From a virus (lineage: Duplodnaviria > Heunggongvirae > Uroviricota > Caudoviricetes): a DNA stretch of 6,450 bases. The notes under the pieces were generated by a model, which was not told the origin of the DNA, ran no database searches, and saw nothing but the letters and a program-made list of their open reading frames with translations. The stretch is taken from IMG/VR virus record IMGVR_UViG_2711768018_000010. One strand, written 5' to 3'. The position numbers were made by a program, and so were the translations under genes. Of the stretch, positions 1 to 6,450 are shown piece by piece; the stretch's first letter is position 1, and each line of letters begins with the position of its first letter.

Positions 1-69
1 TGTACTGGATTCGAACCAGTGACCGATTGCTTAGAAGGCAATTGCTCTGTCCGGCTGAGCTAACAACGC
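1..69 (-). tRNA. tRNA-Arg, anticodon UCU; 3' end truncated by the window edge
   Basis: Minus strand from 69 reads GCGTTGT-TA-GCTC-AGCCGGACA-GAGC-A-ATTGC-CTTCTAA-GCAAT-CGGTC-ACTGG-TTCGAAT-CCAGT-ACA. This gives a canonical cloverleaf: D stem GCTC/GAGC, anticodon stem ATTGC/GCAAT, T stem ACTGG/CCAGT, T loop TTCGAAT. The last 4 nt of the acceptor and the CCA lie beyond position 1. Confidence 0.85.
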
Positions 70-82
70 ATGATGCAGATAA

Positions 83-159
83 TGGACCGCCATCGGGGAC
101 TTGAACCCCGCGCAGCCAGCTTCGAAGGCTGGCGCTCTTTCCTGATGAGCTAATGGCGG
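83..159 (-). tRNA. tRNA-Arg, anticodon UCG, 77 nt with encoded CCA
   Basis: Minus strand 159 to 83 folds with a 7-bp acceptor stem (CCGCCAT/ATGGCGG), D stem GCTC/GAGC, anticodon stem CCAGC/GCTGG with loop CTTCGAA, T stem CGGGG/CCCCG with loop TTCAAGT, discriminator T and CCA. Confidence 0.85.
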
Positions 160-166
160 TATGTGA

Positions 167-243
167 TGGTGGCCCTTGCTGGATTTGAACCAGCGACCTG
201 GCGATTATGAGTCGCACTGGGTCATTTCCGATACGCCCTGCCT
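167..243 (-). tRNA. tRNA-like, anticodon CAU (Ile2/Met type, ileX/ileZ-like); only the 3' two-thirds is canonical, so possibly a pseudo-tRNA
   Basis: Minus strand 215 to 167 reads GCGA-CTCATAA-TCGC-CAGGTC-GCTGG-TTCAAAT-CCAGC-AAGGGCC-A-CCA, closely matching the 3' part of E. coli ileX as I recall it. The 5' side (243 to 216) has no GGCCCTT acceptor complement and no D stem. Confidence 0.45.
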
Positions 244-332
244 GCTGACAGGCTTTCATCACATCTGAAAATATAGCACCCTGACTGATACTGTAGTACC
301 TAAGGTTCCAGAAACTGTGATGTATCCGGCAC

Positions 333-355
333 AGAAAAGCCCCTCCGGAGAGGGC
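333..355 (-). terminator. Candidate intrinsic terminator between the methylase/gap region and the tRNA cluster
   Basis: Minus-strand RNA GCCCUCUCCGGAGGGGC forms a GC-rich stem with a one-nucleotide bulge and is followed by UUUUCU. Hand-folded only. Confidence 0.4.
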
Positions 356-544
356 TGGAGAGTGGCGCTATGTGCCATTGCATGATGCCGGGTGCCTCCC
401 GGTGAATTCAGTACCAGCACCTGAATCCGCGATTATCCCATATACCTACTCGCTGATTGCCCCTCCGCACAGGGGGATTCACCATGCCAGTTTCTTTTAA
501 CAAACTCCCCGCAAAACAGACAACTGTCAACCGTCTGAATTGTG

Positions 545-794: not shown

Positions 795-1767
795 GCCCGA
801 GCGCCAGTGCCGCTTTCACTGTCGAACCCAACCCCATGAAAAAATCTGCAATCAGGTCACCCGGACGACTGCTAGCGCTGATTATCTGCTGCAGCATTTC
901 TGCCGGTTTTTCGCACGGATGTTTCCCGGGATAGAACTGCACCGGTTTATGCGTCCACACATCGGTATACGGCACCTGCACCGTCACGCCAAAATACCGC
1001 CGCAGATGTTTATATTCACTCAGCAGCTCCGCATACTGCCGGTTCAGTGAGGTATACGTATCCACCAGCTGGTGGTGGAGCTTTTCCAGTTCACCACGCC
1101 GATGCTTCTCTTCTGCCACCCGGGCAAACAGCGCCTGTAATTTCAGATAATCGCTTTCATTCGGCAACTGCCACTGACCGGCACTGAACCAGTGCGACAC
1201 CATGTTTTTCTTTCCTGTGGCATCTGCAATCTGTTTTGCCGTTATCCCCAGGGCAGCTCGCGCATCACGAAAGTAAGAAATCAGCGGGGCCATCACATGC
1301 TGTTTCAGTGCACTGCCCTTCGCCGCATACCCGGCATCTTTCGGACGATACGGCCCCTGATAATGTTCCGCGAACAGAATGCGCTCTGTGGCGGGGAAAT
1401 ACGCCCGCAGGCTTTCCTTGTTGCATCCGTTCCAGCGTCCGGACGGCTTCGCCCAGATAATATGGTTCAGCACACTGAAGCGTTCACGCATCATGATTTC
1501 GATATCAGATGCCAGGCGATGACCACAGAACAGGTAAAGACTTCCGGCAGGTTTCAGCACCCGCCAGAACTGCGCCAGACACTGGTCCAGCCACTTCAGG
1601 TAATCATCGTCGCCCTTCCACTGGTTATCCCAGCCCTCAGGCTTCACTTTAAAGTACGGCGGGTCCGTGACTATCAGGTCAACAGAATTTTCGGGTAACG
1701 ACCGGATAAATTCCAGGCAGTCGGCGTTGATTAACTCACAACTGGATATTTTTACAGTATTAAGCAT
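795..1767 (-). CDS. DNA methyltransferase, N6-adenine/N4-cytosine type with beta-class motif order (DPPY before FxGxG); orphan, 3' end lost in the N gap
   Basis: ATG at 1767. The N-terminus carries ...DLIVTDPPYF... (motif IV) and the region just before the gap carries ...DFFMGLGSTVKAALALG (motif I, SAM binding), with an HTH-like insert between. 324 codons are visible before the gap. No restriction endonuclease partner is in the window. Confidence 0.85.
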
Positions 1768-1859
1768 GGATCATTAAGCCTGTCTCTGATAGGCTCATTC
1801 TGCTTTTGCGCAAAGCAGTGGGCCTGAGGTTTGCTTGTGAACCCAACGCATGAGCAGAT

Positions 1860-1890
1860 GGCTGGTGGGTGCCCCTAACACCCACCAGCC
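1860..1890. repeat. Perfect 12-bp inverted repeat (7-nt loop) carrying Chi octamers in both orientations
   Basis: GGCTGGTGGGTG-cccctaa-CACCCACCAGCC. The left arm contains GCTGGTGG (1861-1868) and the right arm its complement CCACCAGC (1882-1889). No U tract follows on either strand, so it is not a canonical terminator. Confidence 0.8.
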
Positions 1891-1902
1891 GCCCATTTAC
1901 CA

Positions 1903-1931
1903 CAAATAAAAAAGCCTTCACTGCGGAAGGC
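1903..1931 (-). terminator. Rho-independent terminator just after the 65-aa ORF
   Basis: Minus-strand RNA GCCUUC-cgcagu-GAAGGC (6-bp stem) is followed by UUUUUUAUUUG. The stop codon of the 65-aa ORF lies inside the stem. Confidence 0.7.
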
Positions 1932-2115
1932 GTCTGTAACAACCGAACTGATAGTCTGCCAGACCCGCCATAACCAGCTGGGTCAGTATTAACTGGCAGC
2001 GTTCGCGTGAAAGGTAAGTATTCTGCGCTATCTCCCCGACTGTCGCCGGTTCGGTAACGCTTAATTCATTAAACACCACTCTGGCGGTTTCTGTCATATC
2101 CTGCTGTTTTAGCAT
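1918..2115 (-). CDS. Small hypothetical protein (65 aa), probable winged-helix/HTH DNA-binding fold
   Basis: ATG at 2115 is preceded by AAAAGGAAAAGAC (SD-like). The segment TVGEIAQNTYLSRERCQLILTQLVMAGLA has a helix-turn-helix-like pattern. It sits between two intrinsic terminators, downstream of PR'. Confidence 0.6.
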   Translation of the reverse strand: MLKQQDMTETARVVFNELSVTEPATVGEIAQNTYLSRERCQLILTQLVMAGLADYQFGCYRRLPQ

Positions 2116-2231
2116 GTCTTTTCCTTTTCCGGTTAACGTGACACACCAATAACTCTTGTCGAAAAAGCCAGCAAGCTGAAAGACAGGTATTCACCGCCAC
2201 CAGCGCGTTTACTGTACTGACGCGATTTCAG

Positions 2232-2260
2232 TCATAAAAAACCCGCTCGGCGGCGGGTTG
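2232..2260 (-). terminator. tR'-like intrinsic terminator downstream of the late promoter
   Basis: Minus-strand RNA CCCGC-cgccga-GCGGG is followed by UUUUUUAU, about 68 nt downstream of the predicted PR' start site. Confidence 0.75.
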
Positions 2261-2294
2261 TAGAAACTCTTCTAACGTCAGGCATAAAACGCCC

Positions 2295-2334
2295 ATCGTT
2301 ATAACGAATTTACCACAGATTCCGGAAAAATCAA
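2295..2334 (-). promoter_or_regulatory. Lambda-like late promoter PR' with sigma70-dependent pause element (qut region)
   Basis: Minus strand reads TTGATT (-35, 2334-2329), 16-nt spacer, TGgTAAATT (extended -10, 2315-2307), cgttat, then AACGATGGG (2300-2292). As I recall lambda PR', it has the same TAAATT -10 and the same AACGATGGG pause-inducing element about 7 nt downstream. Confidence 0.7.
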
Positions 2335-2339
2335 CCTTG

Positions 2340-3161
2340 TTACCTAGTTACCTTTTTTAACTGCCGCTCAGCCCATGCTTCTTCAATATCAAACCGGGTC
2401 ACCAGCGCATCATAAAATTTCTTAACTGTTTTTTCCCATGACGCGCGTGTTATCTGGTTTGTCACCTCGCATATAGCATTAAATGCCTCCGTTGATGGTA
2501 GTCTTTCATAGCCACGACCACCACAACGCTGGCAGTCTCTGATAACAGGCATACCACGTTTTACCGACTCTTCACGATGAATGGCGACACCACGCCCACG
2601 GCAATCCTTACAGGCGGTGGAAACCTCACCCTTTCCGCCACACTCCGGACAGGCAACTTTTACCACCTCCCTGACTTTTTTCCATTCTTCCCAGTAAGAC
2701 GGATACACACCTTTCGTACACTTTGCCCATACCGGCGGCTTACCATCCGGATACTGGATCTTGTTTGTAAAAACCTCGCTTTCAATAAATTTTTTTCCGT
2801 GACAGCAGGGGCACTGTTTTTTGCTCGCCGCGCTACGGGCATAATCTTCAAACGCATACGAAGCCATAATACGCATCACTGCCGGTTTTATTTCTGCCGG
2901 GAGTTTTCTTAACGCCGCCACGCGATCACACCGACTGAGTGCATATTCTGTCAGCAATTCTGTTGCCCGCTCTCTGTCATTCATACTAATGCCCATTTTC
3001 CCAAGGAACGCAGAAACCCCCATCTCAGCCCGATTCTGTGTCATGCCCTGCGCGGCCATCACATCAGTGATACTCAGCGCATCTTTCGACGTTGAGGCCG
3101 ATGCATCAGTCAGGCCGGGGGATTTTGGGGAGTAGTATTTCGGTAAATCTTCCAGTTTCAT
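2340..3161 (-). CDS. Q: Late-gene antiterminator Q, lambda-Q family, with an expanded cysteine-rich zinc-finger region (273 aa)
   Basis: The N-terminus MKLEDLPKYYSPKSPGL...DALSITDVMAAQGM and C-terminus ...KTVKKFYDALV...VTR align with lambda Q as I recall it (MRLESVAKFHSPKSPMM...TDVMAAMGM...TVKPLYDALV...AVTR). It has four CxxC knuckles (CPCCHGKK, CPECGGKG, CKDCRGRG, CQRCGGRG) where lambda Q has two. Its start overlaps the rusA stop (ATGA) and it is followed directly by the PR'-like promoter. Confidence 0.85.
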   Translation of the reverse strand: MKLEDLPKYYSPKSPGLTDASASTSKDALSITDVMAAQGMTQNRAEMGVSAFLGKMGISMNDRERATELLTEYALSRCDRVAALRKLPAEIKPAVMRIMASYAFEDYARSAASKKQCPCCHGKKFIESEVFTNKIQYPDGKPPVWAKCTKGVYPSYWEEWKKVREVVKVACPECGGKGEVSTACKDCRGRGVAIHREESVKRGMPVIRDCQRCGGRGYERLPSTEAFNAICEVTNQITRASWEKTVKKFYDALVTRFDIEEAWAERQLKKVTR

Positions 3162-3538
3162 TTTTTGACCTGCCCTTCAAGCATTATGGGATAAATCTTC
3201 ACCCCCAGACGTCCACCAGATACTGGCTGAGCACGAACGATATTGATTTCATCAAACTGCTCATCGTCCATTAGCAACCCCGCATGCGTCAGCGCATCCA
3301 GCGGCGCTTTCAGAATATTGTCCAGGTCACGGCGGCGCTTATCCGGTGGTTCTGCAATAATTTTTATTGCCAACCTTCCGGACAGGCTTAATTTCAGCCG
3401 CTGCTGGCGAACAATAAGCGCCACTGCCCGGCGATAACGCTCCCCGGCTTTTGATACAAAATATGTGCTGCCACGACGACGCCAGTAAGTGTTCACCGTC
3501 GGCGGGTAAGGTAAAACAAATTCTATGCGCTCGGTCAT
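3158..3538 (-). CDS. rusA: Holliday junction resolvase RusA (126 aa)
   Basis: LPYPPTVNTYWR, PDKRRRDLDNILKAPLDALTHAGLLMDDEQ and GGRLGVKI match the E. coli RusA blocks ([50 protein letters not shown]). The ATG follows the upstream stop directly (TAAATG). Confidence 0.9.
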   Translation of the reverse strand: MTERIEFVLPYPPTVNTYWRRRGSTYFVSKAGERYRRAVALIVRQQRLKLSLSGRLAIKIIAEPPDKRRRDLDNILKAPLDALTHAGLLMDDEQFDEINIVRAQPVSGGRLGVKIYPIMLEGQVKK

Positions 3539-4597
3539 TTATGCTTTCCACTTCAGAACACCCGAATTTCTCGCGTGCATTAAAAAACGAATCAGCAACA
3601 ACAGCTGACTGCCGTGTTTCTCTTCAAAATCTTTTACTCCGGCATGTAGTTCGTTACGGCATTTACGGCATAACGGAATAACAAACAAATCATCAGCCTT
3701 TGTTCCCATCCCTCCCAGTCCATGACCAATGATGTGATGCGGATCATCTGCCTGATTGCCACACGTCATGCATTTCTGCGTTTTTACCCAGCGCGTGTAT
3801 ACAGGCATCTCTTCCCGTTGTGATTTCTGGCGCTGGAGATACTGAGCCGGTGACTCCGGATCAACGGCAATGCTGACCACCGTCTTTTCCTGTGGTGGGT
3901 TCTGTTGCTGGTGGACGTGAGGCAGTAACGCAATATTTTTTGTGCGCTGCTTCAGTATGCTGGTGGCTGTCTGCTCTCCCGGTATGATGTCGCTTTCACT
4001 GTACACAGAGCGAATTTTTTCCGCACGCAACCCCAGCGAACGACGTAATACCGCTTCCGGTAGCGCGTCCGCCACCTGATTGCGGACCGCCCACCAGGAT
4101 AATTCAGCCAGAGATAATTCACGCTCCTGCGTACCGCTTATTGCGTGACCGATGACGTCAATCATCCATGCTGACAGGTTTTGATGAGCAAGTTGCTCGA
4201 GTGATTCGGATGTCTGGTCACGCAGCTGGTTGTCGCAGTGCCAGCACAACACCATTGCGCCGGTACCATAACGGTGAATGACGGTTTCGCTGTGATGATA
4301 ATCGCCGTGTGGCCACTGGCAGGATTTAATATGGCGCAACAGCCAGTCAGACAATGCACCAGCACCACCAGCAGCACGAATCACCCGTGCGTTACTGAAA
4401 AACGGCAGCAATGTTTTGTCTTCCACCAGCGGCTGGCGAGCGGCAGGAACGACCCCGGACGGCAGATTACGCATGCTTTTTGGTTCCGGCTCCACCAGTA
4501 TTCTGCCGTTATGGAATGCTGACATTGATTCACGGCCTGGCTTAACGATAACCAGACCGAGTTCCGGTACCAGAACAGGTCGAAGTAATACCCGCAC
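3539..4597 (-). CDS. DUF968-like prophage protein (YdfU-like, 352 aa) with a C-terminal HNH-like Cys/His motif
   Basis: Long ORF with a GTG start at 4597 four nt after GGAGG; an internal ATG (MSAFHNG...) is an alternative start. The C-terminus CMTCGNQADDPHHIIGHGLGG...DDLFVIPLCRKCRNELH resembles an HNH nuclease signature. The hok, small ORF, large ORF, Q order mirrors the K-12 Qin prophage (hokD, rem, ydfU, quuQ) as I recall it. Confidence 0.75.
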   Translation of the reverse strand: MRVLLRPVLVPELGLVIVKPGRESMSAFHNGRILVEPEPKSMRNLPSGVVPAARQPLVEDKTLLPFFSNARVIRAAGGAGALSDWLLRHIKSCQWPHGDYHHSETVIHRYGTGAMVLCWHCDNQLRDQTSESLEQLAHQNLSAWMIDVIGHAISGTQERELSLAELSWWAVRNQVADALPEAVLRRSLGLRAEKIRSVYSESDIIPGEQTATSILKQRTKNIALLPHVHQQQNPPQEKTVVSIAVDPESPAQYLQRQKSQREEMPVYTRWVKTQKCMTCGNQADDPHHIIGHGLGGMGTKADDLFVIPLCRKCRNELHAGVKDFEEKHGSQLLLLIRFLMHARNSGVLKWKA

Positions 4598-4672
4598 ATT
4601 ACCTCCAGATCCGTTGCTGGAATGTGCGGGACGGACGCGTTGGCCGTTCGGAGTAAGGGAGCCTGACGGAGA

Positions 4673-4954
4673 TTATCCAGTGACGGTAGTCGAGGCTAAG
4701 GGCTTTTTTAACCTCGCATCCGCGCCTGCGGTAACACTGAATGAGCCATTCGGCCTGTTCTTCAGTGCATGGGGGATGCTGGTACCAATCAGATTTAAAT
4801 GCGTGAGAGCGCCGCCCGTGCCTGCTGGCAAAGACGGCTGAATTATCAGAATTGTGTAGTCTGGAAGGCAGTGGCTGACAATAGCGCCATTCTCAACGCG
4901 CACAGTATAGAGGCCATCTTCACTAAAAATTTCACGTAATTCTTCGATTTTCAT
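4673..4954 (-). CDS. Hypothetical small protein (about 93 aa from ATG 4954; the ORF track uses TTG 4957)
   Basis: ATG at 4954 is preceded by GGAAGGA (SD-like). The N-terminal half (MKIEELREIFSEDGLYTVRVENGAIVSHC...) looks protein-like; the C-terminal half is compositionally odd, so the true extent is uncertain. It occupies the position of rem in Qin. Confidence 0.45.
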   Translation of the reverse strand: MKIEELREIFSEDGLYTVRVENGAIVSHCLPDYTILIIQPSLPAGTGGALTHLNLIGTSIPHALKNRPNGSFSVTAGADARLKKPLASTTVTG

Positions 4955-5036
4955 CAACAGAATCCTTCCAGATAAATAGCACTCCCCTGTTCGGGGTCCA
5001 TCCCTCTTCTCCCTGCGCGCTACTTAAGTATTTTTG

Positions 5037-5066
5037 ATTCTATTCCGGCACCATCTAAAACTTCAA
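5037..5066 (-). promoter_or_regulatory. Candidate sigma70 promoter for the hypothetical/DUF968/rusA/Q operon
   Basis: Minus strand reads TTGAAG, 18-nt spacer, TAGAAT, immediately downstream of the hok terminator. Motif match only. Confidence 0.25.
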
Positions 5067-5074
5067 ACGCGTTG

Positions 5075-5106
5075 AAAATAAAAACAAAAACCCGCCGAAG
5101 CGGGTT
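5075..5106 (-). terminator. Rho-independent terminator of the hok transcript
   Basis: Minus-strand RNA CCCGC-uucg-GCGGG (5-bp GC stem, UUCG tetraloop) is followed by UUUUUGUUUUUAUUUUC. Confidence 0.75.
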
Positions 5107-5174
5107 AAGTGTGGGTGCATTGAGGATGCCTGCCCCATCAGAGGTGGCGAGGGATTTCTCCCCCGCCTGGTCTC

Positions 5175-5330
5175 TTACTCCTCAGGTTCGTAAGCTGTGA
5201 AGACAGCGACCTCCGTCTGGCCGGTTCGAATTCGTACCTCGCAGAGGTCTTTCCTCGTTACCAGTGCCGTCACTATGACGGTTAAACAGATGACGATCAG
5301 GGCGATTAACATCGCCTTTTGCTGCTTCAT
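5175..5330 (-). CDS. hokD: Hok-family type I toxin (51 aa), HokD/RelF-like
   Basis: MKQQKAMLIALIVICLTVIVTALVTRKDLCEVRIRTGQTEVAVFTAYEPEE matches K-12 HokD (RelF) as I recall it and has the Hok single transmembrane helix. ATG at 5330 lies 9 nt after AAGGAG. Confidence 0.85.
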   Translation of the reverse strand: MKQQKAMLIALIVICLTVIVTALVTRKDLCEVRIRTGQTEVAVFTAYEPEE

Positions 5331-5387
5331 AGCCTGCTTCTCCTTGCCTTTCGGCACGTAAGAGGCTAACCTAGATTTGCCGTTCAT
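5175..5387 (-). CDS. mok-like in-frame upstream reading frame (70 codons) overlapping hok
   Basis: An in-frame ATG at 5387 (GAGG 8 nt upstream) extends Hok by 19 residues (MNGKSRLASYVPKGKEKQA). In hok/mok loci, as I recall the K-12 annotation, mok is an N-terminally extended frame sharing the hok stop (mokC 69 aa versus hokC 50 aa). Confidence 0.5.
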   Translation of the reverse strand: MNGKSRLASYVPKGKEKQAMKQQKAMLIALIVICLTVIVTALVTRKDLCEVRIRTGQTEVAVFTAYEPEE

Positions 5388-5621
5388 AGATTGAGCCTCA
5401 GATTAATGTTAAGCGTCTTGCCGGACGCGTAATGTTAACTGGGGCTTTTCTCTATCTGCCTTTTGGTGTTCATGCCTGAGACAGATAGCCTCAAGCACCC
5501 GCTGCAATTCTACTTAACTCTCCTTTTCCCGCAAACCGTTTTTATCCCCAGCGGCAAATCGAATACACCACCAGCGCCACCGCCATCGCAATTCCTACCG
5601 TTGTTAATGCTTCAGGCCAGG

Positions 5622-5966
5622 TCATCGTAAAATATCCTCCACGCTTATCAGTCCGTTCCGCTCCAGATAACTCATCGCCTTATCCGGTAATTTGCAGTCT
5701 GGCTTCGCTTTCCTCAGTTGCCAGGTTAACTGCTTTACCAGCATGGTTAACTCATCGACCAGACGCTGATATCCCACTGGTTTGTATTCATGCAATTTAC
5801 CGGCTGGCTCTGCTGCCAGCGATACCAGTGCGATTTCCAGAACAGCAATATCCATCTTATATGTGCGGATGATGTCATGGTCGATTGTGCCCGGTATGCA
5901 CAGTCTCTGTGCTTCAATAGTCTCCTCTGCGTGAGCTATTAACTGCTCTCTGGTAAAAGTCGTCAT
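5622..5966 (-). CDS. Hypothetical protein (114 aa), paralogous to the adjacent 55-aa ORF
   Basis: ATG at 5966 overlaps the stop of the upstream 55-aa ORF (ATGA). It shares MTTFTREQL and [10 protein letters not shown] with MTTITKERI and [10 protein letters not shown] of the 55-aa ORF. Confidence 0.65.
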
Positions 5967-6130
5967 GCCGTAGCCCCTTCTTGATATTTTTCAAACCAGA
6001 ACACAACCGGCTCTGCTTCCAGCGATGCCAGCGCAATCCGTGCCAGTTCCATTTGTTCACCACGGGTAAGCCCGTTTTCAAGCGGGTTTTTAATGAACAA
6101 TTCAATACGTTCTTTGGTAATAGTGGTCAT
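5963..6130 (-). CDS. Hypothetical small protein (55 aa), not in the supplied ORF track
   Basis: Hand translation of the minus strand from ATG 6130 gives [55 protein letters not shown], ending at TGA 5965-5963. A strong SD (TAAGGAG, 6-nt spacer) overlaps the stop of the upstream ORF, and its own stop overlaps the next ATG. Confidence 0.6.
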
Positions 6131-6140
6131 GTGTTACTCC

Positions 6141-6450
6141 TTAACCCGCAGTGCTTTCAACTGATGAGGGGAACAAAATCTTTTCATCAAACCCTGCATT
6201 CATATCATGAACAGCAACACACCAATCCATCGACGAACGATTATCAAGAGCCTCCATGATTTCATCCATGCGGCGTAGGTCATACAGGTAAATGCTTTTA
6301 TCGCCAATGGTGTAAAAGCCAATTTTTTTCGGTGATGGATGAGGTGTACTGGCAATAGCGGACACTACCATTTGTTCTTTTTTTAAGCAGCCATCTGATG
6401 ATATTTTTCCCTGAAGGCTGCCGGGGAGATATTCCCCAGACGAGAGTGAC
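6141..6450 (-). CDS. Hypothetical protein, probably 5'-partial (reading frame open to the right window edge)
   Basis: The ORF track starts it at ATG 6371 (76 aa), but that ATG has no SD and the same frame stays open with no stop up to position 6450. The C-terminus is ...FPSSVESTAG with TAA at 6143-6141 overlapping the SD of the 55-aa ORF. Confidence 0.5.
   Translation of the reverse strand, partial: SLSSGEYLPGSLQGKISSDGCLKKEQMVVSAIASTPHPSPKKIGFYTIGDKSIYLYDLRRMDEIMEALDNRSSMDWCVAVHDMNAGFDEKILFPSSVESTAG

Follow-up and report, generated by a model that had tools for sequence, protein, structure and literature searches.

An ileZ 3' fragment at a novel joint in a Shigella sonnei-type prophage sequence

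Within the 6,450-nt stretch of DNA analysed here (the window), the minus strand from 215 to 167 carries the 3' part of the phage tRNA gene ileZ, which breaks off cleanly on its 5' side, at the point where it meets a block of prophage sequence that in relatives lies downstream of the tRNA array. We consider it very probable that this fragment is a non-functional remnant of ileZ that marks a rearrangement joint. It is a tRNA pseudogene piece at a private rearrangement joint, or else a sequence artefact, and neither would be new in kind. Mosaic and decaying prophages, those of Shigella especially, commonly contain tRNA genes cut short at recombination joints.

The tRNA fragment and its fold

From 215 to 167, the minus strand reads GCGACTCATAATCGCCAGGTCGCTGGTTCAAATCCAGCAAGGGCCACCA, which is identical at 49 of 49 positions to nucleotides 28-76 of ileZ (tRNA-Ile2, anticodon CAU) when aligned with the genes annotated as ileZ or tRNA-Ile in Stx2a_F723, Nil3 and PhiR49_2. 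The same 49 nt are matched at 100% by ileZ in ten S. sonnei loci, and nucleotides 28-76 are likewise identical in the ileZ genes of Stx-converting and lambdoid phages (AP012533.1, AM072972.1 and the prophage of S. sonnei 53G). The retained part comprises four of the five 5' bases of the anticodon stem, the anticodon loop, the variable loop, the T arm, the 3' acceptor strand and the CCA end. The part that is gone, ileZ nucleotides 1-27, comprises the 5' acceptor strand, the D arm and the first base of the anticodon stem, which in the window is replaced by another base. Identity with ileZ ends sharply at 215, placing the homology breakpoint at 216/215, between tRNA nucleotides 27 and 28. An earlier note, made from the letters alone, had described a CAU-anticodon Ile tRNA fragment running from about 215 to 167 on the minus strand without its 5' acceptor strand and D arm, and on both points the alignment and the covariance model agree with it. 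Its outer limits of 167-243 were too wide, since only 167-215 is tRNA-derived and 216-243 belongs to a different block, that of the small RNA STnc100.

The 27-nt 5' half of ileZ, GGCCCTTTAGCTCAGTGGTGAGAGCGA, has no match at three or fewer mismatches in the readable window. The same note had stated that no matching 5' half occurs elsewhere in the window, which holds for the letters that can be read; a run of 250 N at 545-794 lies where, by collinearity with relatives, the 3' end of a methyltransferase gene and the canonical ileZ are expected, and the statement is therefore limited to the readable part.

No valid cloverleaf was found at the fragment, either by ARAGORN or by covariance model, and the outcome by which the earlier note could have been overturned did not occur. 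On the whole window ARAGORN made a single call, argN at 83-159, and the Rfam tRNA model RF00005 scored 23.7 bits over 170-237 against a gathering score of 29. The intact ileZ of the S. sonnei locus L006 scores 72.5 bits with the Rfam tRNA model and is called by ARAGORN as tRNA(CAT). The covariance alignment of the fragment recovers, with high posterior probability, the anticodon loop CUCAUAA, the T arm GCUGG/CCAGC and the terminal ACCA; it marks the pairs of the acceptor stem and D arm as non-canonical, and the D arm is collapsed. A seven-pair acceptor stem between the 5' and 3' ends is not formed, the 5' strand being absent. The predicted fold of the 82-nt region is no better than those of shuffled sequences (z = -0.49), and only its T hairpin looks like part of a tRNA. 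The acceptor-stem pairs C4-G69 and C5-G68 are TilS identity elements for lysidine modification, and neither can form in the fragment because nucleotides 1-27 are missing. Since it has neither an acceptor helix nor a D arm, the fragment, judged from general tRNA biology, should be inert: it should not serve RNase P as a substrate, nor undergo tRNA processing or charging. Co-transcription as spacer or leader RNA ahead of the intact argN and argO would be the most to expect of it.

On its 3' side the fragment is followed by the same neighbours and spacers as in the ileZ–argN–argO arrays of the Stx-converting and lambdoid phages named above, with 7 nt to argN and 13 nt to argO. The window copy differs from the ileZ of those phages in lacking nucleotides 1-27 and in being preceded by the STnc100 block rather than by the methyltransferase gene and its spacer. 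Decayed copies of the same tRNA in the same array are found as an ileZ pseudogene in phage vB_EcoS-611R1 (tRNA-Pseudo-TAT, ON470586.1) and in an IMG/VR contig (L063). Those copies are full length, lie at the canonical position and show their decay in point changes and one small deletion inside the gene, whereas the window copy is cut off cleanly at a structural joint and is perfect in its 3' part.

Gene order in the window and its relatives

All genes of the window lie on the minus strand; the Pfam labels used here are taken from identical proteins in relatives. Read along that strand, the window opens with the end of an IS3-family element (6450→6340) and continues with a hok/sok-type toxin–antitoxin module at 5175-5500 (sok, RF01794, 112.4 bits, 5500→5325; a 70-aa Hok ORF, 5387→5175, with PF01848 in identical relatives), a DUF968 gene (4597→3539), rusA (3538→3158), the gene for a 273-aa Q antiterminator (3161→2340), a 65-aa ORF (2115→1918) and the readable part of an N6/N4 DNA methyltransferase (MTase) gene (795-1767, PF01555), which in relatives precedes the tRNA array. 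The N run at 545-794 comes next, followed by the STnc100 block at 216-544, the ileZ fragment at 167-215, an intact argN (tRNA-Arg, anticodon UCG, 83-159; 58 bits with Rfam and called by ARAGORN) and argO (tRNA-Arg, anticodon UCU, 1-69; 57.1 bits, 3'-truncated), the last 8 nt of which are lost at the window edge. A complete argO lies at 8667-8743 of L006. The earlier note had placed the fragment in an interval between Q and a toxin gene, a setting that we do not recover: the window ends inside argO, its closest relatives have no stx downstream, and no such toxin gene was found in the window or in the S. sonnei relatives. What those relatives have downstream is STnc100, in some cases an IS element, a DUF1737/SASA esterase gene (of the kind annotated NanS in a related phage) and a holin gene. 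In Stx phages, the ileZ–argN–argO array is known to precede stx.

The 216-544 block, recognised by RF02076, a terminator scan and identity to relatives, consists of an STnc100/PasD-family prophage sRNA gene, its terminator and about 110 nt of downstream sequence, and runs into the N mask. The sRNA gene matches the full-length model (516→327, RF02076, 123.6 bits) and its intrinsic terminator lies at 356→338. STnc100 (RF02076) is a known prophage sRNA family that has recently been tied to the PasD sRNAs of pathogenic E. coli (bioRxiv 10.64898/2026.05.13.724894). The window copy fits the full model of this family and has the family terminator; it is abnormal only in its position relative to the tRNA array. 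The block is native to related phages, being 98.5% identical to positions 1501-1830 of the E. coli ATCC 11775 locus (L005) and 100% identical to L006 8792-9120, and in relatives it lies about 56 nt 3' of argO, the 56 nt in L006 being made up of the last 8 nt of argO and a 48-nt terminator region. Normally, STnc100 follows the ileZ–argN–argO array and has nanS-p esterase genes nearby. In the ATCC 11775 locus there is also a second STnc100-like copy (L005 1132-1362), diverged to a level of about 70% identity and lying about 140 nt past the first, and tandem paralogues of the STnc100 module therefore occur naturally in related prophages.

An exact look-up of the window's Q protein led to ten chromosomes (L006-L015), all of them canonical S. 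sonnei loci, among them HE616528.1 of Shigella sonnei 53G. Positions 795-6450 of the window are 99.95-99.98% identical to these ten loci. Positions 1-215 and 216-544 are each 100% identical to them, but stand in reversed order. In the S. sonnei relatives and in E. coli ATCC 11775, the order along the coding strand is Q – 65-aa ORF – MTase – ileZ – argN – argO – terminator – STnc100. In L006, the MTase gene up to 8367 is followed by 153 nt with the MTase end, a 40-nt spacer and ileZ nucleotides 1-27 (8368-8520), by the 215 nt equivalent to window 215→1 (8521-8735), by the 56 nt of argO end and terminator region (8736-8791) and by the 329 nt equivalent to window 544→216 (8792-9120). Beyond the position equivalent to 9120 there are 67 nt and then, in most S. 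sonnei strains, an IS element. The differences that all ten chromosomes share against the window are two single-base ones, at 2303 and 5133, both intergenic. The variant at 2303 is shared with a single IMG/VR provirus contig (L138), in which the tRNAs stand in canonical order and the identity is 97.5%; a metagenome scan for this variant gave no match.

Everywhere else that was examined, ileZ is full length. It is intact in all ten S. sonnei loci and complete in all 16 loci that were fetched. We further examined 120 IMG/VR contigs carrying the 3' part of ileZ, the upstream sequence being readable in 118: the 5' half is canonical (0-1 mismatch) in 111, a full-length D-loop variant in six and degenerate, at full length, in one. 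A complete 5' half is thus present in 117 of the 118 copies, with the degenerate full-length copy as the exception, and none of the 118 is truncated. A homologue of the STnc100 block was found in 82 of the 120 contigs, in every case downstream of the tRNAs and in the same orientation. Five phages with matches to window positions 1-411 or 1-544 (Nil3, Lahn2, phi296, 611R1 and PhiR49_2) were considered as candidates for a window-like order and rejected, as the second BLAST piece lies 3' of argO in the four in which the pieces were mapped separately, and in phi296 the whole match span reaches downstream of argO.

The joint at 215/216 and its possible origins

Comparison with both natural contexts identifies 215/216 as a novel blunt joint between ileZ nucleotide 28 and the distal end of the STnc100 block. 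The joint reads GGAAATGACCCAGT on the STnc100 side and GCGACTCATAATCG on the ileZ side, and at the breakpoint the window has CCCAGT before GCGACTCAT where ileZ has GAGCGA before GCGACTCAT. There is no microhomology: on neither side is a single base shared with the displaced partner. A 52-mer over the joint, built from 26 + 26 nt so that each half is too short to seed alone, is absent from 5,426 complete E. coli genomes, 50,697 phage records and 72,556 plasmids; exact 22-26-mers over the joint were found in none of the GTDB species representatives, IMG/VR or the JGI metagenomes, and a 30-aa ORF spanning it has no record in an exact-protein look-up. An IS-mediated origin was rejected, because the nearest IS end in relatives lies 67 nt past the block boundary and none abuts the joint. 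As a separate observation, the joint-centred 10-mer GTCGCACTGG (GTCGC/ACTGG, 211-220) has an exact inverted copy within the MTase gene at 1189-1198, and 17 of 20 positions are complementary over 211-230 and 1179-1198. This inverted copy is probably due to chance (p estimated at about 0.01), and could hint at template switching.

The earlier note had suspected a past recombination event at the fragment, and the joining of two blocks in swapped order supports such a rearrangement. We put it at about even that the joint is biological rather than artefactual. If it is biological, the setting would be a very recent local rearrangement in the late region of a defective lambdoid prophage of the S. 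sonnei type, and the simplest event to require just one joint would be a head-to-tail duplication of a 600-nt unit reaching from ileZ nucleotide 28 to the end of the STnc100 block (215 + 56 + 329 nt). The second copy of such a unit would start in mid-tRNA, giving the 3' fragment followed by argN and argO. The minus strand of the window reads from the end of the STnc100 block directly into ileZ nucleotide 28, with both blocks in their native, direct orientation; since both are so oriented and the tRNA block runs on into argN and argO, the joint has the form of an end of unit meeting a start of unit. A joint of this form is the signature of a head-to-tail duplication, and a relocation of the tRNA block, which would be the alternative event, gives an identical one. 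A blunt joint with neither microhomology nor an IS end would be unusual for a simple spontaneous bacterial duplication and argues against one, and the joint is seen in one sequence only, that of the window, which also counts against duplication. That the event was specifically a tandem duplication is, in our estimate, less likely than not. Compared with the S. sonnei relatives there are no substitutions in the 544 nt around the joint, against two in the adjoining 5,656 nt; with zero substitutions over this length, the event must be either very recent or not biological.

The strongest rival, to which we give a little less than an even chance, is that the joint is an artefact, in which small contigs were mis-joined or mis-ordered by the N stretch over a repeated tRNA array, or which arose in the assembly or construction of the window; the true order would then be canonical and ileZ intact. 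The uniqueness of the joint across E. coli genomes, phages, plasmids, IMG/VR, JGI metagenomes and GTDB representatives speaks for such an artefact, as do the canonical order in ten near-identical S. sonnei chromosomes and one IMG/VR contig, the 100% identity of both blocks to canonical sequence, the bluntness of the joint, and an N run that replaces the position of the tRNA array only 329 nt away. Against it, mis-joins in De Bruijn graphs normally need shared k-mers, of which the joint has none, and the block ends (ileZ nucleotides 27/28 and L006 9120/9121) match no known repeat or IS boundary, the IS end lying 67 nt further on. The private SNPs at 2303 and 5133 also weigh on this side, since they point to a distinct isolate that could have a structural variant of its own.

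The N mask bears on both the duplication and its alternatives. In the first copy of a duplicated unit the STnc100 part is visible, and the tRNA part would need 424 nt between 795 and 544, where there are 250 N; either the length of the mask is therefore not preserved, or there was a second change, of 174 nt. When coordinates are carried over from relatives on the MTase side, the MTase stop falls near 709 and the canonical ileZ at about 668-593, both inside the mask; on the STnc100 side, they place the 48-nt terminator that follows argO at 592-545. Together, the two projections tile the mask exactly (153 + 49 + 48 = 250), and the 174 nt by which the mask falls short of the canonical 424 nt correspond exactly to spacer, argN, spacer and argO, counted between the two CCA ends. 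It is probable that the mask hides an intact ileZ. The arithmetic can be read in three ways: the mask length is not preserved and the event was a plain 600-nt duplication; argN–argO is gone from the first copy, which would take two events or a precise relocation; or the exact tiling is a coincidence.

The second of these readings leads to a rival that we regard as unlikely, in which the mask would contain the end of the MTase gene, all of ileZ and the 48-nt terminator that follows argO, and argN–argO (174 nt), removed exactly between the two CCA ends, would have moved to a position behind STnc100, accompanied by a duplicate of the ileZ 3' half. Such a relocation, in two steps or in one precise one, would put CACTTATTTTCC directly after the ileZ CCA under the mask. 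It accounts for the exact tiling of the 250 N from both flanks, and a 3-nt CCA/CCA microhomology could mediate the deletion of argN–argO. Weighing on the other side, the arithmetic is its sole basis, with a chance fit estimated at a few percent; two events would be required in DNA that has no substitutions; and the expected joint between the ileZ CCA and the terminator has no match in IMG/VR or the GTDB representatives. It is very improbable that the mask is truly 250 nt long and holds an intact ileZ followed directly by the array terminator, argN–argO having been excised at the CCA ends and re-inserted after STnc100 with the ileZ 3'-half copy. If that were true, it would mean a precise, perhaps RNA-processing-linked or site-specific, shuffling of tRNA genes in prophage arrays and not random illegitimate recombination.

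The earlier note had also raised a duplicated integration-site core, in which an element inserted into ileZ would have brought its own tRNA 3' end and displaced the original one as the fragment. We find little room for this and hold it to be extremely unlikely. In K-12, the pseudo-tRNAs beside cryptic prophages are att-core duplicates of tRNA 3' ends that flank an integrase-bearing element and are paired with an intact copy at its other end. The fragment resembles these pseudogenes in being a 3' piece, left by recombination, that runs from the anticodon region to CCA, the typical shape of a tRNA att core; it differs from them in being flanked by local phage DNA with no integrase or element. 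The adjoining DNA is the phage's own STnc100 block in normal orientation and is not foreign, and the window has no integrase gene between Q and the tRNAs. The only possible place for a second core copy within an intact tRNA is under the 250-N mask, and if the mask keeps its length, the two 49-mer copies would be at most about 380-430 nt apart, leaving too little room for an integrase. Nor does the boundary recur anywhere else, the full 5' half being present in 16 of 16 loci and 117 of 118 IMG/VR copies. A functional D-armless tRNA or tRNA-like RNA that uses GGCGTAT (237→231) as its 5' acceptor strand can be set aside as barely conceivable: the covariance model does place GGCGUAU opposite AAGGGCC, with five of seven possible pairs including one G·U, but the match is below the gathering threshold and has no D arm, the MFE fold lacks that pairing and is no better than shuffles, and GGCGTAT is ordinary STnc100-block sequence that in all relatives stands beside unrelated DNA, so that the acceptor-strand combination is not conserved.

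Annotation and neighbouring elements

For annotation, the fragment is better labelled a tRNA pseudogene fragment than ileZ, and until reads confirm it, the order with STnc100 before the tRNAs is best regarded as either an artefact or a structural variant private to this sequence. A real variant would leave the intact argN and argO about 120 nt behind the STnc100 terminator, where their expression might change; it would also represent a rare blunt rearrangement of 0.6 kb, not mediated by an IS, in an otherwise clonal S. sonnei prophage. A literature search on ileZ, argN and argO returned nothing usable.

Elsewhere in the window, the model of the Hfq-binding RNA isrK has two sub-threshold matches on the minus strand, of 25.8 bits at 5085-5166 and 18.9 bits at 2236-2307 (gathering score 50). 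Both come mainly from terminator hairpins, and 2236-2307 lies just downstream of Q, where the late promoter and terminator region would be expected to lie.

The IS at 6340-6450 has a second copy in the S. sonnei relatives, inverted and 67 nt past the STnc100 block, so that inverted IS copies enclose about 6.4 kb of this prophage. Contigs with the window's Q protein mostly measure 5-10 kb, in keeping with draft assemblies that break at these IS copies. In one S. sonnei chromosome (CP022672.1, L015), about 1.3 kb of extra DNA at 8640-9977 splits argN with a 13-nt overlap (window-equivalent 96-108). We suspect that this insert is an IS, and it suggests that the tRNA array is under erosion in Shigella.
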